Shown: one piece after another, positions 11,604 to 60,159 of the stretch
How the letters are laid out: each line of letters opens with the position of its first letter
Numbering within the stretch: the stretch's first letter is position 1
Source: Acetobacteraceae bacterium
Lineage (GTDB): Bacteria; Pseudomonadota; Alphaproteobacteria; Zavarziniales; Zavarziniaceae
Length of the DNA: 64,000 nt
Direction: 5' to 3'
Assembly: GCA_947379865.1 (NCBI GenBank)
Contig: CANCOY010000001.1
Coordinates: 11,724-75,723, forward strand
Notes under the pieces: generated by a model
Seen by the model: only the letters and a program-made list of their open reading frames with translations
The model's database searches: none
What the model was told of the DNA's origin: nothing
Translations under genes and position numbers: made by a program

Positions 11604-12341
11604 TTACGCTCCCGCCTCTGGCTCGACCCGGGCGAGCGCCAGGGTGCGCACGCGCCGCGCGATGATTTCCGCCTTGATGCGCCACAGCAGCAGGGCGACG
11701 AAATAGACGTTGAAGGCCGCCATCATCACCAGCAATGGCACCAGGATGGAGACATCGATGGCCGGCCCATTCATGCGCACGATGGAGGCTGGCTGGTGCA
11801 GGGTGTTCCACCAGTCCACCGAAAACTTGATGATGGGAATGTTCACAAAACCCACCAGCGCCAGGATCGCCGCCGCCCGGGCCGCCCGCGTGGGGTCATC
11901 AATCGCCTGCCACAGGGCGATATAGCCAAGGTAGAGGAAGAACAGCACAAGGAACGACGTCAGCCGCGCATCCCAGACCCACCAGGTGCCCCACATGGGC
12001 TGGCCCCACAGGGCGCCCGAGACAAGGGCAATGGCGGTGAAACCGGCGCCAAGGGGTGCCGCCGCCTTGGCCGAGAGATCTGCCAGCGGATGTTTCCAGA
12101 TCAGGGCAATGGCACTGGCCAGCGCCATCAGGCTGTAGCAGGCCATGGCCATCCAGGCCGCCGGCACATGCACGAACATGATGCGCACGGTCTGGCCCTG
12201 CTGATAGTCCGGCGGGGCGACCGCAAGACCCAGATAAAGGCCCACGGCCAGCAGCAGCACAGCCAGACCCGTCGCCCACGGAGAGACGGCGTCGGCGATG
12301 CGCAGGAACCGCGTGGGATTGGCAAAACGGTGCAGGCTCAT
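11604..12341 (-). CDS. ccmC: Heme exporter protein CcmC
   Basis: Internal Met 61 (MSLHRFANPTRF...) of ORF 11604..12521. The longer TTG-started version would overlap ccmB. WGTWWVWDARLTS WWD motif. Confidence 0.9.
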   Translation of the reverse strand: MSLHRFANPTRFLRIADAVSPWATGLAVLLLAVGLYLGLAVAPPDYQQGQTVRIMFVHVPAAWMAMACYSLMALASAIALIWKHPLADLSAKAAAPLGAGFTAIALVSGALWGQPMWGTWWVWDARLTSFLVLFFLYLGYIALWQAIDDPTRAARAAAILALVGFVNIPIIKFSVDWWNTLHQPASIVRMNGPAIDVSILVPLLVMMAAFNVYFVALLLWRIKAEIIARRVRTLALARVEPEAGA

Positions 12342-18225: not shown

Positions 18226-18537
18226 CTAAACCAGCAGAAGTTCAACGCGCTTGCCGCAGGCCTTTGCATAGCGGCGGATCGTCTCGAATGTCGGCGAGTG
18301 TTTGGGATCACGCATGGAGCTTTCCAGACGCGAAACGGCGCTTTTGGACGTCCCCATCCGGACCGCAATTTCGTCCTGGGTGAGGCCCGATTGTTTGCGC
18401 GCCTCAAGAAGAGACCGCAGCGCGGCATAGTCATCGGCGCCCGCCTCCCAAGCCTCTTTGAAGCCGGGCCTCCGCATCGCCTTTTCCAGGGCCTTCTTTC
18501 CGTCGTGACGGACGGGCTTGAACCCTTGATCGCTCAT
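18226..18537 (-). CDS. higA: XRE-family HTH antitoxin (HigA-like)
   Basis: Met 76 of ORF 18226..18762: MSDQGFKPV...LTQDEIAVRMGTSKSAVSRLES. ATGA overlap with the upstream toxin gene. Confidence 0.8.
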   Translation of the reverse strand: MSDQGFKPVRHDGKKALEKAMRRPGFKEAWEAGADDYAALRSLLEARKQSGLTQDEIAVRMGTSKSAVSRLESSMRDPKHSPTFETIRRYAKACGKRVELLLV

Positions 18538-18854
18538 GGCCGCGCCTCCTTCAATCGCTTGCGAGCCAGCTTGAGGTCCTTGGCGGGCGTCGCCTGGCTC
18601 TTTTTCACAATGCCGTGCAGGATCACCAGCGTGCGACCGACCTGCGTACAGTAGAACGCGCGGCCGATTCCTTCTGGTCCCTTGCACCGTAGCTCGAACA
18701 ATCCGTCGCCCATCGGACGCGCATGAGGCATCCGAAGATCGAGGCCATCCTCCTCCAGCCATTCAATCAGGCGGAGATAGTCGGCATAGATGCCGACCGG
18801 CCATTCCTCGATCTCCCGCCTCACGCGGTCGTTGTAGTAGAGAACCGTCCACAT
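18534..18854 (-). CDS. higB: RelE/ParE-superfamily toxin (HigB / phage Gp49-like)
   Basis: 106 aa. MWTVLYYNDRVRREIEEWP...GLFELRCKGPEGIGRAFYC...LVILHGIVKKSQATP. Toxin-first gene order. Confidence 0.8.
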   Translation of the reverse strand: MWTVLYYNDRVRREIEEWPVGIYADYLRLIEWLEEDGLDLRMPHARPMGDGLFELRCKGPEGIGRAFYCTQVGRTLVILHGIVKKSQATPAKDLKLARKRLKEARP

Positions 18855-26165: not shown

Positions 26166-27287
26166 TCATACCCCTGCGCCAGGTGCCCGCGTCGGGGCAT
26201 CCGCATCCTTTTCGGTCAGCAGTCTGAGGAGGGGGGGGTTGATGAAGAGTTTTTCCCGGCCGGCCTTCATTTCCTGCAGAACGCCAATATCGCAAAGGCG
26301 CTTCAGATAGACCGAGGCCGACTGACGGCGGGCAATGCCGGCATCGACCAGGTCAGCGATACGGCAATATGGCTGCACGAACACCATTTCGACGAGCTCA
26401 CGGGAATAAATCCCCGCCGCATCCCGTCGGATGGTTTCGGCCGTCCCGTCGAGCAGGTGGCGGATGGCGGTGATCCTGGCGGTTGTCCAATGCGCGGTCT
26501 CGGTGATGGCGCTAAGCATGTAGAGGACCCATTCTTCCCAGGCGCCGTCGGTGGTGACTTTCAGTAGCAACCGATAATACTCCGCCTTGTGGCGGATGAT
26601 GTAGCGGCTGAGATAGAGCACCGGGATGCTAAGCAGGCCCTTTTCCACTAGAAACAACAGATTCAGCACACGGCCGGTGCGGCCATTGCCATCGGTGAAG
26701 GGATGGATCGCCTCGAACTGATAGTGCATGACGGCCATGCGGATCAGCGGGTCTACGTCTTCAGTTGCATGAATATAGCGCTCCCAGTCAGCGAGTTTGT
26801 CACGCAGAAGCATCTCACCCTCGGGCGGTGTGTAGATCACTGCCCCATCCACATCATTGACGAGGCGGGTGCCGGGTGTGGAACGAATATCAATGGTGCT
26901 GCCCTTGATGGTCTGGCAGATGCGCACCGCCGTCGCCGTCGTCAGGGGCCTCTGGTTCAGCAGTGCGAAGCCTTCATAAAGCGCAACGCGATAGCGCAGA
27001 GCCTCGCGTGTTGCCGGGTCGGCCTGGCTGTTTGCCTCGTTGGCAAAGCGGAACAGCCGGTCGCTGGTGGTGACGATGTTCTCGATCTCGGAACTGGCCT
27101 GGGCTTCCAGCAGTGGAATGCTGTTGATCAGCACCGCCTGATTGGGGATCAGGTCTCCCGCCACCTTGAGTTCTGCAAGCGCAGCCCGGGCCGTGATGCA
27201 GGCCTTGAGGACGGCCCGTGTCTCCACGTCTACCTGCGGCGGCAGGCCAGGCAGGGCATTATAGGGGCGGCTGGGGTCGAACGTCAT
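26166..27287 (-). CDS. fic: Fic-family protein (class II, N-terminal inhibitory helix; probable AMPylase)
   Basis: Met 39 (MTFDPSRPYNALPGLPP...) of ORF 26166..27401. Fic motif HPFTDGNGRTGR. SSEIEN matches the inhibitory (S/T)xxxE(G/N) motif. Confidence 0.85.
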   Translation of the reverse strand: MTFDPSRPYNALPGLPPQVDVETRAVLKACITARAALAELKVAGDLIPNQAVLINSIPLLEAQASSEIENIVTTSDRLFRFANEANSQADPATREALRYRVALYEGFALLNQRPLTTATAVRICQTIKGSTIDIRSTPGTRLVNDVDGAVIYTPPEGEMLLRDKLADWERYIHATEDVDPLIRMAVMHYQFEAIHPFTDGNGRTGRVLNLLFLVEKGLLSIPVLYLSRYIIRHKAEYYRLLLKVTTDGAWEEWVLYMLSAITETAHWTTARITAIRHLLDGTAETIRRDAAGIYSRELVEMVFVQPYCRIADLVDAGIARRQSASVYLKRLCDIGVLQEMKAGREKLFINPPLLRLLTEKDADAPTRAPGAGV

Positions 27288-27288
27288 A

Positions 27289-27491
27289 TGTCGATGAAAC
27301 CCGATAAAATCGACACGTTTCGCAAACGTGTCGATGCCATCGACATGTTTCCAGAACGTGTCGATATTTCCTGATTTTATCGACATGTTGGGTATGAGCA
27401 AGGGGGATTTGGGCCACCCCAGCAGCCTCGTTCATGTCGATGTGATCGACAGATTTGGCGAATATGTCGATTTTTTTGTGTTTTATCGACA
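27289..27491. promoter_or_regulatory. Phased array of ten ATCGACA/TGTCGAT heptamers (operator- or iteron-like) upstream of fic
   Basis: Copies start at 27289, 27309, 27329, 27339, 27359, 27379, 27435, 27445, 27465 and 27485, alternating in orientation. 27309-27335 is a palindrome with perfect 12-nt arms. Confidence 0.8.
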
Positions 27492-34371: not shown

Positions 34372-35084
34372 CTGGCAGGCGGATCGTGATCCTGACGGGG
34401 GCCGGCATCTCGGCTGAATCAGGCCTTGGCACCTTTCGCGACAAGGATGGCCTGTGGACGAAGGTGCGCCTGGAAGACGTGGCGACGCCGGAGGGCTTTG
34501 CCCGCGACCCCGAGGGCTGCCATGCCTTCTATAACGCACGGCGTGGCGGCATGATTGCGGCCCGGCCCAATGCCGCCCATTTCGCCCTGGCCCGCCTGGA
34601 AGCAGGCCTTGCCGAACGCGGGGCGGGCGAGGTGCTGATCGTCACCCAGAATATCGACGACCTGCACGAAAAGGCCGGCAGCACCAACCTGATCCACATG
34701 CATGGCGAGATGGGCAAGGCACGCTGTGGCCATTGCGAGCATGTCCTCCCCTGGGCGGGCGACCTTTCCACCGCTTTGGCCTGTGGCGCCTGTGGCCGCA
34801 GCGGCGCCATGCGGCCCCATGTGGTCTGGTTCGGCGAAATGCCCTTTGACCTCGACCGCATTGCCGAGGCGCTGGCCGACTGTGACCTGTTCGTGTCCAT
34901 CGGCACCTCGGGCAATGTCTATCCCGCCGCCGGTTTTGTCGCGGACGTGCGCCGCCGTGGCCTGGCCCGCACCCTGGAACTCAACCTCGAACCCTCTGAA
35001 GGCTTCTCCCTCTTCGAAGAACGCCTCTATGGCCCCGCCACCGAAATCGTCCCCGCCTGGGTGGAGGCGCTGCTGGAGGGGTGA
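34362..35084 (+). CDS. cobB: NAD-dependent protein deacylase (Sir2 family)
   Basis: 240 aa. GAGISAESGLGTFRD, QNIDDLHEKAG, Zn-ribbon CxxC...CxxC. Confidence 0.9.
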   Translation: MGMTGRRIVILTGAGISAESGLGTFRDKDGLWTKVRLEDVATPEGFARDPEGCHAFYNARRGGMIAARPNAAHFALARLEAGLAERGAGEVLIVTQNIDDLHEKAGSTNLIHMHGEMGKARCGHCEHVLPWAGDLSTALACGACGRSGAMRPHVVWFGEMPFDLDRIAEALADCDLFVSIGTSGNVYPAAGFVADVRRRGLARTLELNLEPSEGFSLFEERLYGPATEIVPAWVEALLEG

Positions 35085-35445
35085 GGAGAAATCTGGCGCA
35101 TGCCTGTAACGAGGCGCTTGGGAGGATCGCCGTCAAAGCCGATCATGCCCCTGCCAGTACCCTGATTTGGTATATTTGAGAGCTTCAATGGCTTCCAGGT
35201 TCTCAGCAGGCAGACTGGAGACCTGGGCAGGACACGCCTTGTTGCTGGCCGACCCAGCCACGCACGTCTTGCCGAGGGCCGTAGCCCCAGATGACCGGAG
35301 AACGCCCGCCGGCGCCGGCGGTCACGCGGGCTTGATCAATGGCCGTGTCGATATGGTTTTTATATAGTCTAATAACTGAGGGCAGCACTCAGCAAACGCG
35401 GCCCTTGAACAAGCTTCACTCGACCAGGCAAGTCAGAGATCCTTC

Positions 35446-37164
35446 ATGAAACAAAATTTCGGCATTCTATCAATCTCTCCAGCCTATCTTGGCGGATTTT
35501 TTGCTGTCCTTATGATTGGCCTCGCTGGTATTGGCGGCGTCCTGAATTACTCGGCGATTCCATTTTGGGATACCTGGGATGCCGCCCTCTCCATGATGCT
35601 GCGCCTCCATGATGGAGATACGACGGTATGGTGGTCCCAGCATAACGAGCACAGACTTATTCTCGCGCGCGCCCTGATCTGGTTTGATTTTAAGTTCTTT
35701 GACGGAATGGGATATTTTCTAGTTTTCTTTAACTACGGACTTTGTGCAATATCAGGAGTAATTTTCTATTGTTTTATGGAAAAAATTAATTATCATGACA
35801 ATAATTCTAAAAATAAAACAAACAGAATGGCACTGTATTTTTTCTTGATTGGCAGCACATTTTTATGGACTCAGGTGGAAAATTTTGTTTTGGGTCTAAA
35901 TTGCAATTTTTTTATGGCGCAATTGTTGCCATTAATTGCTTTTTACTGTCTTGCCAGATCTTCTGTTTCGGGCTCACGGCGAGATTTTTTGATTGCCTCC
36001 CTGTTCGGAACCCTTTCTGCAGGCACGCTGGCGAGCGGTGTGGTGATTGCGCCCCTCATGCTTGGCTACGTCCTGGTGCTGCGGCAGGGCTTGGCCAGGG
36101 CTGCCACCCTTGGCGTTATTTCCATTACGATTATGTTTTATTACTTTAATGGTTATGTAACGCCATCGGAGCACGGTTACGCGGGCAGCGCTTTCATCCA
36201 CCACCCGATTGGCGTGTTCAACTATGCCATGATGTTTCTTGGCTGTCCGTTCAACTTCCTGGTAGGGGGTGGGCGGCTTGGCAAGCTGGTGGCGCTCAAT
36301 TCCGGTATTGTCTTTACGATCATGTTTGCCGCTCTCGTGCGGAGATGGATCTATACCGTAGAGAAATCGCCGTTTACGGCCGCGCTGCTTTTTTTCATCG
36401 CCTATATCGGGATCTCTGCCGTAGCGACTGGCGGCGGCCGTCTAGTCCTTGGTGAGGCGAGCGCCTTTGCTTCCCGCTATACCACACCGGCCATCATGGG
36501 CTGGGTGGCGCTGCTTCTGCTGCTGTGGCACCGCTCAGGCGACCGGCCGGCCACAAACACCAGACGCCCTGTGATTTTTTTCACAGCTATCGGTGCCCTT
36601 ATGCTGGCGTACCAGGTCCAGGCGCTCAGGAATGCAAGCGCGACGCTGTTTCCAAGAGAGGTTGCCGCCCTTGCCCTGAGTCTCGACATCAATGACGAGG
36701 CCGCAATCAGGAAGATCTATCCCGTTCCCCACCGCGCCCTGATGCTCAGCCGGGCAGCCCTTCCCCTTGGCCTGTCGATTTTCGGGCAGCCCCCTTATGC
36801 AGGCCTCTGGCACGAGATGGGGACACCCCTTGCGCTGCCAGAGGCCCCGGCCTGCCTTGGTGCGCTCGACGCGGCCATACCGGTCGCCGGGGCGCCCGCC
36901 TACATCCAGGTGACCGGCTGGCTGATTGATCCCCAGACGCGCTCAGCCCCAAAGACCATCCGTTTCATCGGTGATCAGGGCCTTGTGGAGGGGATCGCAA
37001 TGGTGGGCCAGAGGCGCAACCAAGTCGGCAAGACGATCGATCGGGACACAGGATATGCCGGCTTTGTCGGCTATCTTCGGGCCGGTTCTGCCGGCACAAG
37101 CGTCACCGCAACCGGCGGCGGGGCAGGGTGCAGGATCAGTTTCCATATTCCGCCACTGACCTGA
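35446..37164 (+). CDS. Polytopic inner-membrane protein with a C-terminal soluble domain; function unknown (GT-C-like topology is a guess)
   Basis: 572 aa, at least 10 hydrophobic segments, no diagnostic motif recognised. The 5' third contains a segment of about 31% GC (hand count, 35701-35880). Confidence 0.7.
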   Translation: MKQNFGILSISPAYLGGFFAVLMIGLAGIGGVLNYSAIPFWDTWDAALSMMLRLHDGDTTVWWSQHNEHRLILARALIWFDFKFFDGMGYFLVFFNYGLCAISGVIFYCFMEKINYHDNNSKNKTNRMALYFFLIGSTFLWTQVENFVLGLNCNFFMAQLLPLIAFYCLARSSVSGSRRDFLIASLFGTLSAGTLASGVVIAPLMLGYVLVLRQGLARAATLGVISITIMFYYFNGYVTPSEHGYAGSAFIHHPIGVFNYAMMFLGCPFNFLVGGGRLGKLVALNSGIVFTIMFAALVRRWIYTVEKSPFTAALLFFIAYIGISAVATGGGRLVLGEASAFASRYTTPAIMGWVALLLLLWHRSGDRPATNTRRPVIFFTAIGALMLAYQVQALRNASATLFPREVAALALSLDINDEAAIRKIYPVPHRALMLSRAALPLGLSIFGQPPYAGLWHEMGTPLALPEAPACLGALDAAIPVAGAPAYIQVTGWLIDPQTRSAPKTIRFIGDQGLVEGIAMVGQRRNQVGKTIDRDTGYAGFVGYLRAGSAGTSVTATGGGAGCRISFHIPPLT

Positions 37165-37340
37165 GGCAGGCGAACACGATAACGCCGCAGACGCGCCTCA
37201 GCGAGGATCTGGGGATCGATTCCCTCAAGTTCATCGAACTTGAGGGAATCGAACAGGAGCTGAACATCGCCATCAGTGACGATGCCGTGGCCTCTGTCCG
37301 CGACCTTGGCGGCCTGCTCGAGGCTTTGGCCCTGGCCTAG
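37128..37340 (+). CDS. Acyl-carrier-protein-like fragment (helix II-IV only; possible gene remnant)
   Basis: 70 aa, GTG start overlapping the preceding gene by 37 nt. EDLGIDSLKFIELEGIEQEL matches the ACP phosphopantetheine-site motif DLGxDSL. The helix I region is missing. Confidence 0.35.
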   Translation: MQDQFPYSATDLRQANTITPQTRLSEDLGIDSLKFIELEGIEQELNIAISDDAVASVRDLGGLLEALALA

Positions 37341-50226: not shown

Positions 50227-50302
50227 GGGGCCGTAGCTCAGTTGGTAGAGCGCCTCGTTCGCAATGAGGAGGTCAGCGGTTCGATTCCGCTCGGCTCCAC
50301 CA
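50227..50302 (+). tRNA. tRNA-Ala (anticodon CGC)
   Basis: Hand-folded cloverleaf. Acceptor GGGGCCG/CGGCTCC with the G3:U70 Ala identity pair, anticodon stem CCTCG/TGAGG, loop TTCGCAA, T-loop TTCGATT, encoded CCA. Confidence 0.9.
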
Positions 50303-50408
50303 TTCCCCCCGGGTGACGGATCAAGGGCTTGAGCCTTGGTCCCGCTGCGGTGGACATCCTTCGAAATTCAAGCTGCCACCACTTTGCCACACGCAGAGGA
50401 TGGAAATC

Positions 50409-50804
50409 TCAGCCGATCAAATCGTCATGCTTTCCAAGTCGCCACAATGGAATGGCGAGGGAAAGGCCGCCGGCCAATATCCAGACGTCGCCGATCAGGT
50501 GCCCCATGTGCTGTGGGCTCATAAGCGCGTGGTAAAGCATGACCAAGCCATGGGTGAAGCTGGATATCGCGACAAACCATAGAAAACTGGTGTGACTGAG
50601 CGGGTTCTTTATGGCGCGCGCCGCGCACAGGCCCACGGCAACATAGATACTCACGATCATCTGGTCATAGATCGCGTTATAGGGCGGCCACCGCCAGCCT
50701 GCCAACAAGTCGAAATAGACAGCGGCTGGAATTCCGAACAACCCGCCAAACGCCCAAACAATTACAGCGCTGCGCAAAGAAACTACCAGAGCATCATGCT
50801 TCAT
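50409..50804 (-). CDS. Small four-TM membrane protein, function unknown
   Basis: 131 aa, four hydrophobic segments. Lower GC than the surroundings. Confidence 0.55.
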   Translation of the reverse strand: MKHDALVVSLRSAVIVWAFGGLFGIPAAVYFDLLAGWRWPPYNAIYDQMIVSIYVAVGLCAARAIKNPLSHTSFLWFVAISSFTHGLVMLYHALMSPQHMGHLIGDVWILAGGLSLAIPLWRLGKHDDLIG

Positions 50805-50926
50805 CTGATAATCCCCACCAGAGATTTTTGAGACGCCTCAGGATCGCCGAGGACAGCTTGCCTCAAGCTAAGCTGCCACTTTTGTATCGTCCAGCATGGC
50901 CCGGCAACGACCCCTGGCCTCAGCTT

Positions 50927-50939
50927 GGGGGGGGGGGGG
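50927..50939. repeat. Homopolymeric G13 tract
   Basis: cagcttGGGGGGGGGGGGGcgc read directly. Intergenic, about 120 nt upstream of the 50804 start on the minus strand (C13 in that sense). Confidence 0.9.
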
Positions 50940-50996
50940 CGCATCTCCAGTTTCGGAGACACCCTTCGCCGATTGGCGGCGCTACCAGCAAGGTCA

Positions 50997-51028
50997 GAAA
51001 AAAGGGGGCGCCAGAAAGACGCCCCCTT
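50997..51028 (-). terminator. Intrinsic terminator of OmpA-like gene 1
   Basis: AAGGGGGCG (51002-51010) / CGCCCCCTT (51020-51028). On the minus strand it is followed by TTTTTT. Confidence 0.7.
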
Positions 51029-51051
51029 GTCCACTCCGTATCGGAAGCCGA

Positions 51052-52134
51052 TCAGGGCAGAACGATCTCCACCCGGCGGTTCTGGGGCTCGCGCACACCG
51101 TCAGCCGTCGGAACAAGGGGGGAGGCCTCGCCCTTGCCCACAACCGTGATCTGGTCGGCCGGCACGCCCAGCTGCACCAGGGCGTTTTTCACGGCGGCTC
51201 CGCGCTTCTCCGAGAGTTGCTGGTTATAGGCGGTGCTGCCCGAGCGGTCGGCATGGCCGGTCAGCTCAACCCGGGTGACGGCCAGCTGCCGGGCCGCCTT
51301 GGCCGCTTCACCGATGATGCTTGCCGCCTCGGCGGTTACGGCCGACGAATTCCAGTCGAAGAAGACAAGATAGGAGCGCGCCAGTTCCGGGGCAGGCGGG
51401 GCCGGTGGTGGCGGCGGGGCGGCAACCACCGGGATGGGGGCGGGCGGGGCGTCGCCAAACTTGTAGATCAGCGCGAGGAGAAGGGAATGATTGGACTGAT
51501 CATAACCCGAGTTGCCAAAAGCAGAATCAGAGAAAAATTTGTAGTAGTCGGCACTGTCTGCGCCTAAATAACGGTATTCTGCTGAAACGTCCCACTTATT
51601 TCCAACATCATATCGCAACCCTGCTATGGCCTGATAGGCAAAATTCAGTTTTTTGACATGGCCCGAATTTTGATAACGAAAATATACATCTACATTCGAG
51701 GCCCCAATACCAGCCCCAACATAGGGTGTAACTGATGTACCGGTCGGAATATCATAAAGTGCGCTCAGCATGGGTGTAACAGATGTCACATGACCGATGC
51801 CGGTGCTGGTACCAAAGCTGTAACTGATTTCCTGATCAAAGGAGTTGTACCGATAAACGACATCTGCCTGCAGACGGAATGAACCAAAGCTATAACCGGC
51901 AAGCGCACCGGCAGCAAAACCGGTCTTGTGCGTAAAATCATCCTGCGGATCGTAGAAGCCGCCCGTGCCATGATAGTTGCCGCTGGATCGTTCCGTAAAA
52001 TTCAGACCGCCAAGGCCACCGGCATACCATCCCGATGCTTCGTCGGAGTGTGCAACACGCGCACCCACGCCAAGTGTCATGACGATGGCAGAAGAAATGG
52101 CGGCAACCCGGGCAAGGCGTGCTGGATGAAGCAT
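51052..52134 (-). CDS. Outer-membrane beta-barrel protein with a Pro-rich linker and C-terminal OmpA/peptidoglycan-binding domain (paralogue 1)
   Basis: Met 10 (MLHPARLARVAAISSAIVMTLG...) preceded by GGGGAG. C-terminus TGHADRSGSTAYNQQLSEKRGAAV...NRRVEIVL. Confidence 0.85.
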   Translation of the reverse strand: MLHPARLARVAAISSAIVMTLGVGARVAHSDEASGWYAGGLGGLNFTERSSGNYHGTGGFYDPQDDFTHKTGFAAGALAGYSFGSFRLQADVVYRYNSFDQEISYSFGTSTGIGHVTSVTPMLSALYDIPTGTSVTPYVGAGIGASNVDVYFRYQNSGHVKKLNFAYQAIAGLRYDVGNKWDVSAEYRYLGADSADYYKFFSDSAFGNSGYDQSNHSLLLALIYKFGDAPPAPIPVVAAPPPPPAPPAPELARSYLVFFDWNSSAVTAEAASIIGEAAKAARQLAVTRVELTGHADRSGSTAYNQQLSEKRGAAVKNALVQLGVPADQITVVGKGEASPLVPTADGVREPQNRRVEIVLP

Positions 52135-52241
52135 CTTGAGCTCCCCTTCAAGACTGATCATTCTGTATAATGATTAAGTCTTTTCAGCGAGACAAGCAGC
52201 TTTGTACCTGTGGCCTTGCCAGGATTGGTGGCGTCACCAAC

Positions 52242-52268
52242 AAAAAGGGGGCGCCCAAAGACGCCCCC
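52242..52268 (-). terminator. Intrinsic terminator of OmpA-like gene 2
   Basis: GGGGGCG (52247-52253) / CGCCCCC (52262-52268). On the minus strand it is followed by a T-run. Homologous to the 50997-51028 hairpin. Confidence 0.65.
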
Positions 52269-52291
52269 GATCCTTCGCCGTGTTCAAACCT

Positions 52292-53347
52292 TCAGGGCAG
52301 GACGATTTCCACCCGGCGGTTCTGGGGTTCGCGCACACCGTCCGCCGTCGGCACAAGGGGGGAGGCCTCGCCCTTGCCCACAACCGTGATCTGGTCGACC
52401 GGTATGCCCAGCTGCACCAGGGCATTTTTCACGGCAGCGCCGCGCTTCTCCGAGAGTTGCTGGTTATAGGCGGTGCTGCCCGAACGGTCGGCATGGCCGG
52501 TCAGCTCAACCCGGGTGACGGCGAGTTGCTGAGCCGCCTTGGCCGCCTCGCCGATGATGCTTGCCGCCTCAAGGGTTACGGCCGACGAATTCCAGTCAAA
52601 GAAGACCAGATAGGAGCGGGCCAGTTCCGGCGCAGGCGGGGCCGGCGGCGGCGGCGGCGCGGCAGCCACCGGTGCGGGGGCCGCCGGGGCGTCGCCGAAC
52701 TTGTAGGTCAACCCAAAGAGGATTGTGTGATTGCCATAGCTATAGCCACGCGTTCCGTTCTGCGCGTTATCCAGATAGTTCTTCTGCTCGGTGGCGAAGT
52801 AGCGGTATTCCGCGCTGGCATCCCAATTGGCCGCAATGTCATAGCGCAGGCCCGCAATGGCCTGATAGGCATAGGCCCATCTGCCGACACGCTGGCGGGT
52901 GGCACTGGGATCATCGGTATAGCGATAGAGAACCTTGGCCATGCCAACGCCGGCACCCACATAGGGTGTCAGGCCTGCTCCAGCGGGGATGTCGTAGAGC
53001 ACGCTCGCCATGGGTGCCAGTGACGAGACACTGCCAATCTTGGTGTAAACGGTGCCGTCATAGGTCTCCACGTCAAAGCTGTTGCGCCGCTTGACCACGT
53101 CGACCTGCAGGCGGAAGGGCCCAAAGTCATAGCCCGCCAGCAGCCCGGCGGCAAAGCCGGCCTTGTGGGTGTAGTCATCCTGGCGATCGTTGATTGTACC
53201 ATGGGACGTGTCGGTGAGGTTCAGCCCACCCAGGGCACCCGCGTACCAGCCGGTGGCCTCCTCTGAACGGGCGCCACCGGCGCCCATTGCCATGACGAGG
53301 GCAGAAGAGATGGCCGCAAGCTGAACAAAGCGGAAGGGACGAGACAT
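52292..53347 (-). CDS. Outer-membrane beta-barrel / OmpA-domain protein (paralogue 2)
   Basis: Met 5 (MSRPFRFVQLAAISSALVMAMG...) preceded by GGAG. C-terminal 130 aa are nearly identical to paralogue 1. Confidence 0.85.
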   Translation of the reverse strand: MSRPFRFVQLAAISSALVMAMGAGGARSEEATGWYAGALGGLNLTDTSHGTINDRQDDYTHKAGFAAGLLAGYDFGPFRLQVDVVKRRNSFDVETYDGTVYTKIGSVSSLAPMASVLYDIPAGAGLTPYVGAGVGMAKVLYRYTDDPSATRQRVGRWAYAYQAIAGLRYDIAANWDASAEYRYFATEQKNYLDNAQNGTRGYSYGNHTILFGLTYKFGDAPAAPAPVAAAPPPPPAPPAPELARSYLVFFDWNSSAVTLEAASIIGEAAKAAQQLAVTRVELTGHADRSGSTAYNQQLSEKRGAAVKNALVQLGIPVDQITVVGKGEASPLVPTADGVREPQNRRVEIVLP

Positions 53348-53510
53348 GACAAACTCCATCCTGTAATACCTGTTCAGTAAGATGAATACCTCCCGTCAGT
53401 TGGGCAAGCGGCTTTGGCTTTGAGGCCGTGCAAACCGGGCCTTGTGTTGCCGGCGCGCCACGGCAGGCCCGGCGCGGATAGCGACCCTCGCTAAGCCGCC
53501 TTCACTCCGT

Positions 53511-54152
53511 TCAGAAACGATAGCCAAAGCCCATGCCAACCAGCGTGGGATCAAGGTCGAGGTCCGCCGTCACCGCGCCACCGTTCAGCTTGGCCGTGGT
53601 GTTGAGGAACACCTGCTTGATGTCGAGGTTCAGGAACCAGCGCTCGCTCACCGCCACATCAACGCCCGCCTGCAGGACGGTGCCAAAGTTGTTGTCGAGG
53701 CTGGCGCTCTGCAGCCCGCTTTTGGGGTTCACGTCATAAAACCAGGTGTAATTGATGCCGACTCCCATATAGGGGCTGATGCTGCCCTGGGGCAGGAAAT
53801 GGTACTGGATGGTCAGGGTGGGCGGCAGCAGGCGCGCCTCCACCACATCGGCCCCAAGCGCCGTCGAGGTCGCCATGTGCTGCGGCGAGGCGGCGATCAC
53901 CTCGAACGCGATGTTTGGCGTCAGGAAATAGCTGAGATCAACCTCAGGCGTATATTCCGTACTTACATCAAGTGAGCCGCCAAGGGGCGTCACACTGGCA
54001 TCCGCCTGGGGAATGACGCCCAGCGCACGGGCGCGCACAAGGATGCTGCCCTGCTCCTTGCCGACGCCCTCGGCCAGGGCGGGGCCTGACAGAGCAGGGG
54101 CGGCCAGGCCGGCAGCCGTGGCCATGCAAAGGGTGAGAATGCTCTTCTTCAT
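53511..54152 (-). CDS. ompW: OmpW family outer-membrane protein
   Basis: Met 59 (MKKSILTLCMATAAGLAAPALSGPALA...) of ORF 53511..54326. C-terminal ...VGMGFGYRF beta-signal. Confidence 0.85.
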   Translation of the reverse strand: MKKSILTLCMATAAGLAAPALSGPALAEGVGKEQGSILVRARALGVIPQADASVTPLGGSLDVSTEYTPEVDLSYFLTPNIAFEVIAASPQHMATSTALGADVVEARLLPPTLTIQYHFLPQGSISPYMGVGINYTWFYDVNPKSGLQSASLDNNFGTVLQAGVDVAVSERWFLNLDIKQVFLNTTAKLNGGAVTADLDLDPTLVGMGFGYRF

Positions 54153-54384
54153 GATATGCAGGCTCCGCTTGCCGGGGGCGCCCCAGACGACCGCCCGGGG
54201 GAGAGGTTGCACCTCCCATCCCGCAAAAAACTGCGCCAGATCAAGTTCGTTCCGTACCCACACCAACCCGGCCGGGGCCGTTGCCGGCGGGCAACACAGG
54301 CCACCCCGCCTGAGGCGAACGGTCATGAAAACGTTACTTGAAAAATATATGATGGCGGATGATTTGCGCAGGAACTAAAAAGAC

Positions 54385-57300
54385 ATGCCGCTTTTGGGCC
54401 TCAGTGCTGTTACACAAATGAATCGATTTTCACAGATCCTTTTTCTACTCCTGGCTTTGTGCTGCACCTTTATGCTGGCAGGCGGCGGCGCCCATGCAGC
54501 CGTTCTGGCGCCCGCCTCCGTTTCTGTCGGCACTGATCACAGCTGCGCACTGATGACGGATGGAACCGTCTTTTGCTGGGGCGACAGCGCGTTTGGGCAG
54601 GTGGGCGACGGCACGACTGACCGGCACCTGTCACCCGTGCAAATCTCAGGCCTGTCCGGGGTGAGTGCGGTTACGGCGGGCGTCCAGACGTCCTGCGCCC
54701 TGCTAAGCGACCAGACCATCACCTGCTGGGGCCGCAACGACCGCGCCCAGACCGGCAACCAGCGCCAGGACCAGGCCCTCTCCCCCGTCGCCACGCTGGA
54801 CATTACCGCGGCCACGGCCGTGTCCAGTGGCCTTGATCACACCTGCGCCCTGTTGTCGGATGCAACCGTCAAATGCTGGGGCAGCAATAGCTATGCCCAG
54901 CTCGGCAATGCCTCCAACGGCAGCTTCAGGCCTGTCAGCGTCAGCATCAGCGATCAGGATGGAGTCCGCACCCTGACGGGCGTGACGGCCATTGCCTCCG
55001 GATTCTATCATAGCTGTGCCCTGGTGCGTGGTGGAACGGTATGGTGCTGGGGCTGGAACCCCTTTGGACAGGTGGGCAACGGCACCACGAACAACGCCCA
55101 ATATGCGGTGGCGGTTTCGGGATTGTCAGGCGTCCTCGCCATCTCCGCTGGCGACTTCCACAACTGTGCCGTGCTGACGGTGGGCACCGTGAAATGCTGG
55201 GGCGCCAATTTCAACGGACAGCTTGGCTCGGTAACTTCACCTGATACAGCAAAAAGTCTCATTCCAGTCGCTGTCCCGAGCCTCTCCGGCGTAGCAGCCA
55301 TATCGGCGGGCGGGTACCAGACCTGCGCCCTGCTGACGGGCAAGACGGTTTCGTGCTGGGGCGACAATACGGTTGGGCAACTTGGCGACGGCACGACGGT
55401 TTCCAGCCTCGCGCCTGTTGCCGTCTCGGGCCTGTCAAATGTGGCACTGCTGTCGGTCAGTAACACCAGTGCCTGCGCCGTGCTGATGGATGGCACGCTG
55501 AAATGCTGGGGCGGCAACGAAAGCGGCCAGATCGGGGACGGCACGACCAAACAGCGAAGCCCTCCTGTCTACACCGTCTTTCCCCAGAGCATCAGCTGGA
55601 GCCAGACCCTGTCGGGCGGGGTGGGCGACAGTGTGGCGCTGACGGCCACAGCCTCGTCCGGCCTCAGCGTCACCTATGCGGGGACGGCGGACATCTGCAC
55701 CATCAGCGGTAGCACCCTGACCCTGGTGGCGACTGGCACCTGTATTGTTACGGCTGCGCAGGCCGGAACCTCGAATTATAGTGCAGCAGACAGCGTCAGC
55801 CTCAGCTTTGACGTCACCAAGGGCACCCAGACGATCAGCTGGAGCCAGAGCCTGTCTGGCGCCGTGGGGGGCACGGTTTCCCTCGGCGCCACGGCAACGT
55901 CGGGCCTTGCCCTAACCTATGCCAGCGATACAACGGGGGTCTGCACGGTGAGCGGCACGACCCTGAGCCTGGTCAGCGCTGGCACCTGTTCCATAACCGC
56001 CTCTCAGGCGGGGAGTGATTCCTATTTCGCCACCAGCCTTACGCGCAGCTTCACCGTTGCCAAGGGCAGCCAGAGCATTAGCTGGAGCCAGAGCCTGTCT
56101 GGCGCCGTAACGGGCTCCCTCAGCCTTGCGGCCTCCACCTCGTCTGGCCTTGCGGTCTCTTTTGCCGGGACAAGCGGGGTCTGTACAGCAAGCGGCAGCA
56201 CCCTCAGCCTTGTTGCCCAGGGTATTTGTACGGTTACAGTCACACAGGCGGGCAATGACAATTATCTGACGGCAACAAGCGTCCAGAAAACCTTCACGGT
56301 TACGGCCGCCATTGCAGTTTCGCCCTCCAGCCTGTCCTTTGCCAGCAGGCCGATCAACACCACCAGCAGTGCCCAGACCATAGCCGTCAGCAATGGCGGC
56401 GGCGCCAGTTTCCAGATCACGGGCATCACTTTAAGCGGCACTGATGCCGCGGCGTTCACCGCAAGCAATGGCTGCTCCACCGTAGCGGCAGGGGCCAGTT
56501 GCACCATCTCCCTTACCTTCAAACCCACCACCACGGGCGCGAAGGCGGCGACCCTTGCCATTGCCTCAACCGCCATCGGCACGCCCTCTGTCTCGGTCAG
56601 CCTGTCTGGCACTGGCAGTGCGGCCGCGCCGATCATCGGGTTATCTGCCAGCAGCTTTTCCTTTGGCAATCAGTTCGTGGGCACCGCAAGTGCTGGCCGC
56701 ACGCTGACCATCTCCAACGCCGGGTCGGCGTCGCTTGCCATCAGCAGCAGCGTGTTGTCGGGCACCAATGCGGCCGCCTTCACCAAGACGGGTACGTGCA
56801 CCAGCGTCGCCGCCGGCGCCTCTTGTGCGCTGACCCTGGCCTTTGCACCCAGCGCCACCGGTGCGGCCAGTGCGACACTCACCATCAATTCCAATGCGTC
56901 TGGCAGTGCCGCCACCACGGTTGCCCTCACGGGCGCGGGGATCGTCACGACGCTTTCGTCGCTGGCGGGTACCATCGATGGGCCGGGCTTTGCCAATGGC
57001 ACGGGCAGCGCTGCCCGCTTCAACATGCCAAGCGGGATCGCGCTTGATGCGTCTGGCAATCTCTATGTTACGGATACGGACAACAATCTGGTTCGCAAGG
57101 TGACCACCGCCGGCGTCGTCACCACCCTGGCGGGGCAGGTGCGCACGCCGGGGGCCACCAACGCCACCGGCACCTCTGCTTTGTTCAAGGCACCCACCGG
57201 CATTGCCATCACCAGCAGCAATCTGCTTGTGGCAGACAGCGGCAATCACATGATCCGCAAGCTGACCACCGCAGGCGTTGCCACCACCCTTGCCGGCACG

Positions 57301-58929
57301 GCGGGCAGCAGCGGCACCACCGATGCCACCGGTACGGCGGCCCGGTTCAACCTGCCCCAGGGCATTGCCGTGGACAGCGCCGGCATTGCCTTTGTTACCG
57401 ACACCGGCAACAGCACCATCCGCAAGATCACCACGGCGGGCGTGGTCACCACCTTTGCGGGCAGTGCCGGCCTGCAGGGCGGCACCAATGACACGGGCAG
57501 CCTTGCCCGCTTCGCCAGCCCCCTTGGCATCACCCGCGATGCCAGCAATGTGCTTTACGTGACCGACAGCACGGGCCAGACCCTGCGCAAGATCACCACC
57601 GCCGGCGTGGTAAGCACCCTTGCCGGCGCCCATGGCCTGTCGGGCAGCACGAACGACACGGGCGCACTGGCCCGCTTCTCTGCCCCCTCTGGCGCCGTTG
57701 TCGACAGCACGGGCGCCCTCTTTGTGACGGATGCCGCCAATGGCACGATCCGCAAGGTTACATCTGGCGGTGCCGTGACCACCTTTGCAGGGACGGCCGG
57801 GGCGCAGGGCTCGGTCAACGGCACGGGGGCGGGCGCCATGTTCTACAAGCCCGTGGGCCTTGCGCGCGACGCCAGCAATACACTGTATGTGGCCGACCCG
57901 GTGGCCCATGTCATCCGCAAGATCACCAGTACCGGCGCCACCACCACCCTGGCCGGTTATCCCGCCACTGTGGGGGCCGCCAATGATACGGGCAGCCTCG
58001 CCAGTTTCCGCGACCCCTCTGCCATGGTGGCCGATGGCGCGGGCAATCTCTTCATCGCCGACACCGGCAACCACAGCATCCGCAAGGTGACGCCAGCCGG
58101 CGTGGTGACAACCTTTGCTGGAACCGCCCTCATCTCTGGCGCGACCAATGGCACGGGTGCCGACGCACGCTTCAACGGCCCCAGGGGCCTGGCGATTGAT
58201 GGCAGCGGCACCCTCTATGTGGCGGATACTGGCAACCACGCCATCCGCATGATTACCTCTGCCGGGGTGGTGACAACCCTTGCGGGCAGCGCCGGTACAG
58301 TTGGATCAACCGATGCAACGGGGGCGCTCGCCCGTTTCCGCGGCCCTGCCGCACTCGCGGTGGACAGCGCGGGCAGCACGCTTTATGTGGCGGACACGGG
58401 CAATTACACGCTCCGCAAGATCACGGTTGCAACTGGCGCCGTCAGCACCCTGGCAGGCTCGGCCGGACTTGCGGGGACGACGGAGGGAACGGGCACCGCC
58501 GCCCGCTTTGGCCTGGTTCAGGGCCTCGGCCTTGATACGACGGGCACCACCCTTTACGTCGCAGATACCAGCAACAACACCATCCGCAAGGTCGTTATCA
58601 GCACCGGCCTTACCAGCACCTTTGCGGGCACGGCTGGCAGCCGCGGCACCCTTGCGGGCACCGGCACCGCCGCCCGCTTCTCCAGCCCGTCGGCGCTGAT
58701 GGTGGACAGCGCCAACACCCTCTATGTGGGGGACGCTGGCAGTTGCACCCTGCGCAAGATCACCTCCGCCGCCGTGGTAACAACCCCGGTGGGCTCCGCC
58801 GGCACCTGCCTGTTCGCCGCCGCCAATGCGCCCTCCACCATCAGCGTGCCCATGGGCCTTGCGAAGGTGGGGACAAGCCTGTTCGTGACCCTGGGCAATG
58901 GCGTGGCGAAGGTCGCAAACATCCCCTGA
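54385..58929 (+). CDS. Giant secreted multidomain protein: signal peptide, 7x RCC1-like blades, 3x Ig-like repeats, 2x ASH/choice-of-anchor-D-like domains, 12x NHL-like blades
   Basis: 1514 aa. Seven CWG...GQ(L/V)GDG units (about aa 45-397). Three 80-aa ISWSQ(S/T)LSG repeats (aa 400-640). Two domains of about 105 aa (aa 641-852). Twelve units of about 55 aa with ARF..P.G(I/L)A.D..G.L(Y/F)V(A/T)D..N..IRK(I/V)T. An alternative start at 54418 (MNRFSQILFLLLALCC...) gives a clean signal peptide. Confidence 0.85.
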   Translation: MPLLGLSAVTQMNRFSQILFLLLALCCTFMLAGGGAHAAVLAPASVSVGTDHSCALMTDGTVFCWGDSAFGQVGDGTTDRHLSPVQISGLSGVSAVTAGVQTSCALLSDQTITCWGRNDRAQTGNQRQDQALSPVATLDITAATAVSSGLDHTCALLSDATVKCWGSNSYAQLGNASNGSFRPVSVSISDQDGVRTLTGVTAIASGFYHSCALVRGGTVWCWGWNPFGQVGNGTTNNAQYAVAVSGLSGVLAISAGDFHNCAVLTVGTVKCWGANFNGQLGSVTSPDTAKSLIPVAVPSLSGVAAISAGGYQTCALLTGKTVSCWGDNTVGQLGDGTTVSSLAPVAVSGLSNVALLSVSNTSACAVLMDGTLKCWGGNESGQIGDGTTKQRSPPVYTVFPQSISWSQTLSGGVGDSVALTATASSGLSVTYAGTADICTISGSTLTLVATGTCIVTAAQAGTSNYSAADSVSLSFDVTKGTQTISWSQSLSGAVGGTVSLGATATSGLALTYASDTTGVCTVSGTTLSLVSAGTCSITASQAGSDSYFATSLTRSFTVAKGSQSISWSQSLSGAVTGSLSLAASTSSGLAVSFAGTSGVCTASGSTLSLVAQGICTVTVTQAGNDNYLTATSVQKTFTVTAAIAVSPSSLSFASRPINTTSSAQTIAVSNGGGASFQITGITLSGTDAAAFTASNGCSTVAAGASCTISLTFKPTTTGAKAATLAIASTAIGTPSVSVSLSGTGSAAAPIIGLSASSFSFGNQFVGTASAGRTLTISNAGSASLAISSSVLSGTNAAAFTKTGTCTSVAAGASCALTLAFAPSATGAASATLTINSNASGSAATTVALTGAGIVTTLSSLAGTIDGPGFANGTGSAARFNMPSGIALDASGNLYVTDTDNNLVRKVTTAGVVTTLAGQVRTPGATNATGTSALFKAPTGIAITSSNLLVADSGNHMIRKLTTAGVATTLAGTAGSSGTTDATGTAARFNLPQGIAVDSAGIAFVTDTGNSTIRKITTAGVVTTFAGSAGLQGGTNDTGSLARFASPLGITRDASNVLYVTDSTGQTLRKITTAGVVSTLAGAHGLSGSTNDTGALARFSAPSGAVVDSTGALFVTDAANGTIRKVTSGGAVTTFAGTAGAQGSVNGTGAGAMFYKPVGLARDASNTLYVADPVAHVIRKITSTGATTTLAGYPATVGAANDTGSLASFRDPSAMVADGAGNLFIADTGNHSIRKVTPAGVVTTFAGTALISGATNGTGADARFNGPRGLAIDGSGTLYVADTGNHAIRMITSAGVVTTLAGSAGTVGSTDATGALARFRGPAALAVDSAGSTLYVADTGNYTLRKITVATGAVSTLAGSAGLAGTTEGTGTAARFGLVQGLGLDTTGTTLYVADTSNNTIRKVVISTGLTSTFAGTAGSRGTLAGTGTAARFSSPSALMVDSANTLYVGDAGSCTLRKITSAAVVTTPVGSAGTCLFAAANAPSTISVPMGLAKVGTSLFVTLGNGVAKVANIP

Positions 58930-59098: not shown

Positions 59099-59127
59099 TT
59101 GACAGTTTGCTCAGCCTTCCAATTATC
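59099..59127 (+). promoter_or_regulatory. Candidate sigma-70 promoter of the VHL-beta-like gene
   Basis: TTGACA (59099-59104), 17-nt spacer, ATTATC (59122-59127). GGAAGGGA Shine-Dalgarno sequence before the ATG at 59178. Confidence 0.35.
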
Positions 59128-59177
59128 TGGGATATGCATATTCAGGCTCGCGCGGGCGGGCTGGAAGGGACATCGAG

Positions 59178-59540
59178 ATGAAGAAGTTTCTGGTGCTGGG
59201 TTGCCTGCTGGCCGGCGGTGTGTTCCTGATGCCGCAGGCGGCAAAGGCCTTTTCCATTCCCGACGGTTGTTCGGCGCAGACCCTCGCCGGTCTGAAGTCG
59301 GGCAATAGCGAGGAGGCGGCACAGATTACCTTCCGGAACATGTATCCCCGCCCCGTCGAGATCTGGTGGATCAACTTTGAAGGCAAGCCGGAGCTTTTCC
59401 TGACGATCGAGAAGGACGGCAGCGAGAAGATCGAAACCTTCGTCGGTCACATCTGGAAGGTTGTGGATACGGCCGGCAAGAAGTGCGTCTTTTCCTATAG
59501 CGCCGACAAGGGCGACGAGAGCGTACTGATCATGGAATAG
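59178..59540 (+). CDS. Small secreted protein with a von Hippel-Lindau (pVHL) beta-domain-like fold
   Basis: 120 aa. Signal peptide MKKFLVLGCLLAGGVFLMPQAAKA. QITFRNMYPRPVEIWWINFEGKPELFLTIEKDGSEKIETFVGHIWKVVD aligns gaplessly to human pVHL residues 73-121 (sequence recalled from memory). Confidence 0.7.
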   Translation: MKKFLVLGCLLAGGVFLMPQAAKAFSIPDGCSAQTLAGLKSGNSEEAAQITFRNMYPRPVEIWWINFEGKPELFLTIEKDGSEKIETFVGHIWKVVDTAGKKCVFSYSADKGDESVLIME

Positions 59541-59629: not shown

Positions 59630-60097
59630 ATGTTGTTTTCCCCTCATCGGCCGCTGCCGGGCGGCACTGCACCCCACGGCCCCCGCCGCCTGATGCTGGG
59701 TCTGGCGGCTGGCCTGCTGCTGCTATCGGCCCCTGCCAGAGTGCACGCGCAGGAAGATGGCGCGGCCACCCCGGCAGAGCGGATCACCCCCTATATCCAG
59801 CTGGAGCCGTTGCAGGCCAGCGTGATCGAGAAGGGGATGTGGATCGCCACCCTTGTGGTCGCCGCCAGCCTCGACAGCCCCACGTTCGAGACAAGGCAAC
59901 TGGCGCGCTCCCGCATGGAGCGCCTCAATGAAGCCTATCTGTTTGCGCTGTCGAATTTCGCCCGCACCAGGGTCTCCCTCGACCGCCCGGTCAATGTCGC
60001 GGTGCTGGCCAGCACCCTTCAGCGCGTGACCGATGAGGTGCTGGGGCCAGGGATCGCCAAGGTGCTGATCGGCTTTGTTGCCGTCAACAAGGCCTAG
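59630..60097 (+). CDS. Exported hypothetical protein (RR-containing signal peptide; weak FliL-like resemblance)
   Basis: 155 aa. GPRRLMLGLAAGLLLLSAPARVHA signal. No firm domain call. Confidence 0.5.
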   Translation: MLFSPHRPLPGGTAPHGPRRLMLGLAAGLLLLSAPARVHAQEDGAATPAERITPYIQLEPLQASVIEKGMWIATLVVAASLDSPTFETRQLARSRMERLNEAYLFALSNFARTRVSLDRPVNVAVLASTLQRVTDEVLGPGIAKVLIGFVAVNKA

Positions 60098-60123: not shown

Positions 60124-60159
60124 AAAAAGGCCGGGGCTTTTGGCCCCGGCCTTGTTTCT
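60124..60159. terminator. Bidirectional intrinsic terminator between convergent genes
   Basis: Perfect 11-bp stem AAGGCCGGGGC (60127-60137) / GCCCCGGCCTT (60143-60153), flanked by an A-run and a T-run. Confidence 0.75.

Follow-up and report, generated by a model that had tools for sequence, protein, structure and literature searches.

The 64,000-nucleotide stretch of contig CANCOY010000001.1 of an Acetobacteraceae bacterium that was analyzed here (positions 11,724 to 75,723 of the forward strand; referred to as the window) carries a gene for a small protein that is a genuine homologue of the beta domain of the human VHL tumor suppressor, pVHL, as judged by profile match, pairwise sequence comparison, and predicted fold. 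The open reading frame (ORF) is located at positions 59178..59540 of the + strand, and runs from an ATG start to a TAG stop over 120 amino acids (aa), as an earlier reading of this DNA, made from the sequence alone (the sequence-only reading), had stated. Its product, the window protein, is predicted from its N-terminal signal to be exported by the Sec pathway. The domain identity of this protein is secure, and its function is proposed more tentatively: with a probability of roughly 0.45, it acts as an extracytoplasmic peptide-binding module, with a pocket for a proline-type residue, hydroxylated or not, of exogenous proteins or peptides. The elements of this proposal that we infer are the binding of peptides, the specificity for 4-hydroxyproline (Hyp), and the source of the ligand.

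Match to pVHL in sequence, fold, and pocket

The likeness to pVHL was originally put forward on the basis of a gap-free alignment of 49 residues, 17 of them identical, with a human sequence quoted in that reading. This quoted sequence is the same as that of the pVHL chains in the Protein Data Bank (PDB), and the count could be reproduced: residues 49-97 align with human pVHL without any gap at 17/49 identities and 28/49 positives, the latter bearing out the many additional conservative positions that had been mentioned. The identity is not near random, as the BLOSUM62 score of this ungapped 49-residue alignment is 94, whereas 100,000 shuffles averaged -60 and did not exceed 20. A phmmer search against all PDB sequences yielded human pVHL as the best match (E = 3.7e-8, ungapped over residues 38-98), and pVHL chains were the only significant matches; 22/60 residues are identical between the window protein and human pVHL in ungapped alignment. 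Moreover, the Pfam family PF01847 (VHL beta domain) matched residues 39-100 with 47.5 bits (E = 1.8e-12), the gathering score of this family being 21 bits, and NCBIfam gave no match for the window protein.

The AlphaFold model, which was generated from the 7 close homologues, places seven strands in the region from residue 47 to 118, and the domain has a pLDDT of 78-92. Foldseek assigned this model to pVHL in all 50 PDB matches listed, with a probability of 1.00, and the root-mean-square deviation (rmsd) of this predicted structure from pVHL in these 50 matches was 1.6-3.1 Å, mostly 1.7-1.9 Å, over 84-92 columns. PF01847, the AlphaFold model, and Foldseek together delineate the VHL beta domain as a seven-stranded beta sandwich at residues 39-120 (59292..59537, + strand). 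The profile and structure comparisons that had been suggested as checks on the sequence-only reading have thus both come out in its favor.

The residues by which pVHL contacts Hyp are W88, Y98, S111, H115, and W117 (PMC4195687). Their equivalents in the window protein were derived from the ungapped phmmer alignment, with an offset of +24 between pVHL and window-protein numbering, and are identical to the five that had been assigned before: W64 (codon 59367..59369) and F74 (59397..59399) for the pocket wall residues W88 and Y98, with the loss of the Tyr hydroxyl in the latter; T87 (59436..59438) for S111, which hydrogen-bonds the Hyp hydroxyl in pVHL; and H91 and W93, within H91-I92-W93 (59448..59456, corresponding to H115-L116-W117), for the hydrogen-bond donor and the pocket floor, all encoded on the + strand. 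Hence, 5/5 pocket residues are kept or conservatively replaced (Y to F, S to T). In the close homologues P0005 and P0006, the Y98 position is occupied by Y, and functional Drosophila VHL has Thr at the S111 position as well (PMC4195687).

The part of pVHL that recruits the ubiquitin ligase is missing, as had also been noticed from the sequence. The protein stops at residue 120, directly after the seventh strand, with no alpha domain or other helical domain, and the BC-box motif (S/T/A/P)LxxxCxxx(A/I/L/V) was not found in its sequence. Since an Elongin-binding alpha domain is absent, the window protein cannot serve as a ubiquitin-ligase adaptor, and both this absence and its location (signal peptide, bacterial host) exclude it from the Cullin-2 substrate receptors of the pVHL type (VHL-box proteins).

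The Sec signal peptide that had been claimed for this protein was recognized again upon inspection of its sequence. Residues 1-24 (59178..59249, + strand) display a basic n-region (MKK), a hydrophobic h-region (FLVLGCLLAGGVFLM), and a c-region (PQAAKA) with an AxA site for signal peptidase I, with predicted cleavage between PQAAKA and FS, i.e., before F25. All 7 close homologues share this n/h/c layout, along with the AxA site (A22, A24), and the AlphaFold pLDDT is below 50 across residues 1-30. A lipoprotein reading of Cys9 was ruled out, since with just 8 residues before it this cysteine is too near the N-terminus to be a lipobox cysteine. The predicted mature protein (residues 25-120; 59250..59537, + strand) comprises 96 aa, with a mass of 10.7 kDa and a pI of 4.8. 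The cysteines C31 (59268-59270, + strand) and C103 (59484-59486, + strand) are invariant in close homologues, and cysteines are also present at these places in many single-domain bacterial homologues. They could form a disulfide, and the sharing of the pair among single-domain relatives fits a disulfide that would be made outside the cytoplasm.

The codon bias of the ORF (GC3 0.80, GC2 0.39) is typical for real genes in this window of 65% GC, and an identical protein is annotated as a gene product in 3 NCBI metagenome-assembled genomes (MAGs) and on several metagenome contigs. A putative promoter, TTGACA-16-AATTAT (59099..59126, + strand), is located 52 nt before the start codon and agrees with the consensus at 10/12 positions, where 0.3 such sites are expected in shuffles. 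In addition, a Shine-Dalgarno-like sequence, GGAAGGGA (59163..59170, + strand), can be read 7 nt 5' of the ATG.

In the mechanism that is proposed, the small protein would be exported by the Sec pathway, and its mature form, consisting of the VHL beta domain alone, would function as a non-catalytic extracytoplasmic binder that holds a short extended peptide along the sandwich. One ring-shaped residue of the ligand would be inserted into the pocket of W64, F74, T87, H91, and W93. This residue would most likely be 4-hydroxyproline, or else proline, and T87 and H91 would hydrogen-bond its hydroxyl like S111 and H115 do in pVHL. The ligands would likely be derived from outside the cell and be rich in Hyp or Pro, for example collagen-like proteins or the hydroxyproline-rich glycoproteins of plants and algae, and a linked hydroxylase is probably not what generates them. 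In related bacteria, the same module is used in tandem arrays, as well as in the form of an add-on to secreted proline-specific peptidases.

Family distribution, pocket conservation, and domain fusions

A word-indexed search detected 7 close relatives with 70-99% identity to the window protein. Its small clade consists of 7 clusters, and the next relatives have an identity of at most ~40%. An HMMER search of 1.84 billion representatives revealed 1091 related clusters (defined at 50% identity) at E <= 1e-3, and 123/124 of the family proteins that were checked matched Pfam VHL. Most bacterial relatives have a signal-peptide or lipoprotein-like N-terminus, and a few family members are eukaryotic, e.g., from Termitomyces and Paulinella. 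Many of the family clusters contain the domain in tandem copies, ranging from 2 to 12, and arrays of up to 10-12 VHL beta domains are in keeping with a repetitive polymer as the ligand. P0008/L037 (Flavobacteriaceae MAG JBGTNL010000039.1) and P0009-P0013 are 900-2000 aa long and carry 7 to 12 VHL beta domains in tandem, and apart from these repeats they contain no recognizable domain.

At the genome level, an alignment search for close homologues in species-representative genomes detected no related loci. A degenerate DNA pattern for WI[DN][FY]xG...[YF]...T[FY]xxHxW, scanned over species-representative bacterial genomes, matched at least 119 genome stretches, which hold at least 121 ORFs with a VHL beta domain. 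The hosts among the matches listed include the alphaproteobacterial genera Xanthobacter, Roseibium, Rhizobium, Bradyrhizobium, and Hyphomicrobium, as well as Planctomycetota, Verrucomicrobiota, Bacteroidota, Cyanobacteria (including Microcystis), Micromonospora, Myxococcota, Spirochaetia, Armatimonadota, Acidobacteriota, and Chloroflexota.

The best 155 family proteins provided 363 domains, in which conservation was counted at 19 tabulated positions; of these, the pocket positions and N78 (352/363 N) are the best kept. The W88 position is occupied by W in 343/363 domains, the Y98 position by Y or F in 274 (243 Y and 31 F), and the S111 position by T or S in 344 (302 T and 42 S), while H is found at the H115 position in 315 and W or F at the W117 position in 346 domains (327 W and 19 F). 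The pattern-selected bacterial set gave tighter conservation counts, which were discarded as circular because the search pattern itself had selected these domains.

Secreted-peptidase fusions are found in 22/121 listed bacterial VHL-beta genes. Nine of the 121 encode a VHL beta domain joined to a DPP-IV/prolyl-oligopeptidase S9 domain (loci L012, L036, L061, L064, L066, L068, L077, L111, and L128), which Pfam confirmed for 4 of the 9 and for P0044. DPP-IV enzymes are proline-specific. The VHL domain is N-terminal to S9 in Planctomycetota, Lentisphaerota, and an Akkermansia MAG, and C-terminal to it in two Armatimonadota proteins, and these two domain orders suggest at least two separate fusion events. 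Recurrent fusion to proline-specific S9 peptidases points to proline-type ligands. A further 13/121 genes encode a zincin of ~300 aa with the motifs HExxH...EYWAE, combined with one to three VHL beta domains (loci L014, L021, L030, L031, L058, L069, L070, L076, L079, L080, L092, L094, and L096). Zincin-VHL fusions also occur in the family proteins P0029, P0041, P0092, and P0101, with a reverse domain order in P0092, and the L079 protein has a trypsin-like domain in addition. The fused zincin has sub-threshold similarities only, to ATLF (anthrax lethal factor; 14-19 bits) and M90 (12-22 bits), and to lethal factor or Pro-Pro endopeptidase in the PDB (E 0.03-0.9). In a model of the zincin fusion P0101, the VHL domains adopt the pVHL fold (rmsd mostly 1.0-1.8 Å), and the Foldseek list for this model is filled by VHL domains, such that the zincin stays unclassified. 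Fusions of the VHL beta domain to trypsin and calpain domains occur as well. Additional domains are rare among the 124 family proteins that were checked, and comprise TIR, C2, ricin lectin, MACPF, LamG, calpain, DPP-IV, CAP, and trypsin. A substrate-binding module would be expected to be joined to peptidases repeatedly and independently, as is seen here.

TIR-VHL beta fusions without signal peptides were also seen (L113:1797-2789 (+), P0094, and P0057). The TIR domain of L113 matched ThsB-like defense TIR models in PADLOC (E = 6.4e-10), and the N-termini of P0079 and P0125 appear TIR-like by eye, with no TIR model match in PADLOC. Together with the accessory protein of type X retrons (PMC7736814), these TIR fusions point to a separate cytoplasmic, and possibly defense-related, use of the domain.

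Several observations weigh against the proposed recognition of Hyp or proline in exogenous peptides. The pocket geometry is derived from an ungapped alignment and the overall superposition of a predicted model, the window protein has F instead of Y at the Y98 position (F74), and H110 and R107, which we take to be further HIF-peptide contacts of pVHL, are replaced in it by E86 and E83, respectively. The counts in 363 domains refer to proteins that were chosen by a profile built from the window protein's own clade; N78 is probably conserved for structural reasons, and the family conservation could in part be structural, because W117 and F76 belong to the aromatic core of pVHL, the four residues of which are F76, W117, F119, and F136 (PMC3688787). 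In line with what had been noted from the sequence, no prolyl hydroxylase was found in the 64-kb window by a motif screen, reading of all likely genes, and Pfam analysis of the neighbors. At most 3 members of any one Pfam family were detected among 126 ORFs flanking the bacterial homologues, and the families listed for these ORFs include no oxygenase or hydroxylase. Lectin-like fusions (ricin, LamG) are present in some relatives and would fit a sugar ligand. Finally, Mestre et al. state that the function of the bacterial VHL beta domain is unknown (PMC7736814).

Some of these points bear on a different explanation, which is unlikely but deserves serious weight, namely that the domain is a general protein- or peptide-binding beta sandwich of which the ligand is unrelated to Hyp. 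The conserved Trp/Tyr/Thr/His cluster would then bind another peptide feature or mainly stabilize the fold, and the likeness to the pVHL pocket would reflect shared ancestry, not shared specificity. The core position of W117 and F76 in pVHL, the lack of conservation of the HIF contacts beyond the pocket, and the absence of a linked hydroxylase from the window and the bacterial loci are consistent with such a general binder, as is the existence of cytoplasmic versions, fused to TIR, or to IHF in retrons (PMC7736814), for which extracellular Hyp ligands are unlikely. Y98, S111, and H115 lie outside the four core residues named in PMC3688787, yet T/S111 and H115 are kept in ~87-95% of the 363 domains. 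This retention points to a conserved polar contact, and it argues against a general binder, as do the recurrent independent S9 peptidase fusions.

The make-up of the pocket, with two Trp, one Tyr/Phe, Thr, and His, resembles that of sugar-binding sites, and ricin-type lectin, LamG, or FG-GAP/ASPIC domains accompany the domain in some relatives. A carbohydrate or small-molecule binder, comparable to a carbohydrate-binding module (CBM) or lectin and directed at a hydroxylated ring (of a sugar, glycosylated Hyp, or another metabolite) through its aromatic platform and the Thr/His hydrogen-bond donors, is nevertheless improbable: glycoside hydrolase fusions are absent from the ~270 family proteins examined, peptidase fusions are far commoner, and the 50 Foldseek PDB matches listed for the window-protein model are all pVHL, with no CBMs among them. 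A CBM2 match in the PDB was very weak and not significant (E = 1.5).

The preferred reading, in which the pocket takes up a proline-type residue, can be widened to the family, and this broader proposal is made with considerable reserve. The extracytoplasmic bacterial VHL beta domains may be genuine hydroxyproline readers, and the Hyp pocket may be an old and widespread module that environmental bacteria use alone, in arrays of up to a dozen copies, or on proline-specific peptidases, for the capture or digestion of Hyp-rich eukaryotic matrix proteins (collagens, cell-wall glycoproteins of plants and algae) or for reading the marks of the bacteria's own prolyl hydroxylases.

Genomic neighborhood of the VHL gene

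The window contains ordinary genes of an alphaproteobacterial chromosome, including a ccm cluster, acnA, htpG, argG, and folD, after which a block of envelope proteins follows that consists of two OmpA proteins, OmpW, a 1514-aa RCC1/Ig/NHL protein, and a BNR protein. The ArgG encoded here has 86% identity to that of Zavarzinia and other Rhodospirillales, which places the host among uncultured alphaproteobacteria of this general group. All-against-all ORF clustering of the 119 listed loci detected no recurrent neighbor of the VHL beta-domain genes and within-genus synteny only. PADLOC gave no match for the window protein, and no reverse-transcriptase gene is located near its gene, which is thus set apart from retron-type defense accessories.

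The gene closest to the VHL gene on its 3' side encodes a 155-aa exported hypothetical protein (59630..60097, + strand), starts 90 nt 3' of the VHL stop codon, and is possibly co-transcribed with it. The two genes are also adjacent in the 85%-identical relative, and probably in the 78% relatives. The 155-aa protein has only 8 homologues and is thereby confined to the same small clade as the VHL gene. Neither Pfam nor NCBIfam gave a match for it, and tblastn did not find a homologue in the other bacterial VHL loci. The 155-aa protein and the window protein may be functionally linked. The sequence ERITPYIQLEP forms the mature N-terminus of the 155-aa protein and resembles the hydroxylation site LAPYIPMD of HIF-1alpha; since one homologue has Thr in place of the Pro, this is a weak lead.

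These findings touch on an explanation that is very improbable, in which the window protein would regulate or inhibit an envelope protease as a detached copy of the exosite domain of the peptidase fusions, and would either compete for substrates or dock onto a peptidase or onto the 155-aa neighbor. It would agree with the appendage of the same domain to four peptidase classes, the peptidase-inhibitor I36 domain in one relative, the co-inheritance of the VHL gene with that of the 155-aa exported protein in the clade, and the resemblance of the ERITPYIQLEP sequence to the HIF site. However, no peptidase gene adjoins the VHL gene in the window, one homologue of the 155-aa protein has Thr instead of Pro in the PYI motif, and the support for such a regulator comes from analogy alone.

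A GC-rich hairpin (60127..60153; 11 pairs, 9 of them G-C, with a T-run on the - strand) is located between the convergent 155-aa and BNR-repeat genes. It may tentatively be regarded as a site that ends transcription from both sides, such sites not being above shuffle expectation.

Directly upstream of the VHL gene lies the gene of the secreted giant protein of 1514 aa (54385-58929, + strand), which contains RCC1 repeats, ASH/HYDIN-type Ig domains, and a long run of NHL repeats. This protein was rejected as a partner: in the 78%-identity relatives, its position 5' of the VHL gene is not conserved, and tblastn on the other loci gave a single RCC1-like match, in L094, that was taken as unrelated.

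Elsewhere in the window, a tRNA-Ala(CGC) gene (50227-50302, + strand) is followed by a lower-GC block (50300-56000; 57-63% versus 65-68%) that contains the two OmpA paralogues, OmpW, and the giant repeat protein, and that may be an island. A patch of 49-60% GC at 35000-37200 encodes a 572-aa multi-pass membrane protein (35446-37164) with a codon usage that is atypical for the window, and was probably acquired horizontally. Furthermore, a small HigB/Gp49-like toxin-type ORF (18534-18854, - strand) and a Fic-domain protein with the motif HPFTDGNGRTGR (26166-27401, - strand) were recognized by eye from their translations.

Significance and comparison with known systems

To our knowledge, no protein module other than pVHL is well understood as a reader of 4-hydroxyproline, and most PROTAC drugs use pVHL as their handle. 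If its bacterial relatives read Hyp, the origin of the module would be uncoupled from oxygen sensing in animals. Hyp binders that are small, stable, secreted, and disulfide-containing would then be available as reagents, and a new class of bacterial tools against collagen or the cell-wall proteins of plants and algae would come into view, including the VHL-DPP-IV and VHL-zincin enzymes. By itself, the window gene is an ordinary member of the family, and its value is that of a compact single-domain test case.

The sequence-only reading was not aware of a characterized function for such a protein in bacteria, and this stands, as no tested function for bacterial VHL beta domains was found in the literature searched. 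The proteins are less unusual than it had supposed, the window gene being a further member of a bacterial family that is already in Pfam and is mentioned in two papers (PMC7736814, PMC9002001). The conservation of the pocket throughout the family and the peptidase fusions are absent from these two papers and from the other literature found.

Like the beta domain of human pVHL (residues ~63-154; PDB 1LM8, 4AJY), the window protein belongs to the VHL Pfam family, has a seven-stranded sandwich in its model, and presents the same five pocket positions, with Y to F and S to T replacements. Unlike pVHL, it lacks the alpha domain together with the BC-box and the Cul2 box, and hence any link to Elongin C or Cullin-2; by its predicted signal it is exported, whereas pVHL is cytosolic or nuclear. 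Moreover, the loops in its C-terminal half are shorter, the Pfam match ending at profile position 62/82, and it differs at the HIF contacts beyond the pocket, in an organism without a HIF pathway.

Human VHLL/VLP is a cytosolic paralogue of pVHL in the HIF pathway that consists of the beta domain only, and it has been reported to bind hydroxylated HIF-alpha without degrading it. The window protein is likewise a stand-alone beta domain and, unlike VHLL, is predicted to be exported; the binding by VHLL in the absence of an alpha domain shows that a beta domain needs no further domain to serve as a binder or shield. Secreted peptidases are also known to carry substrate-binding appendages, such as the collagen-binding domains of clostridial collagenases. 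The VHL beta domain is found in a comparable position, beside a secreted peptidase domain, in the 22/121 listed relatives described above. Unlike the collagen-binding domains, it belongs to an unrelated fold and family, and the window protein has no catalytic partner in its polypeptide.

Among bacterial proteins, EMK97_00595 of Litorilituus sediminis has been noted in silico as a VHL beta domain protein that is predicted to be secreted with a signal peptide (PMC9002001), and by this published description the window protein is like it in being a prokaryotic VHL beta domain with a predicted signal peptide. The accessory protein of type X retrons also contains a bacterial VHL beta domain (PMC7736814), and its description sets it apart from the window protein, since it resides in the cytoplasm and carries an IHF-like domain and a transmembrane helix as fusion partners. 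The window protein, for its part, belongs to a small clade of its own.

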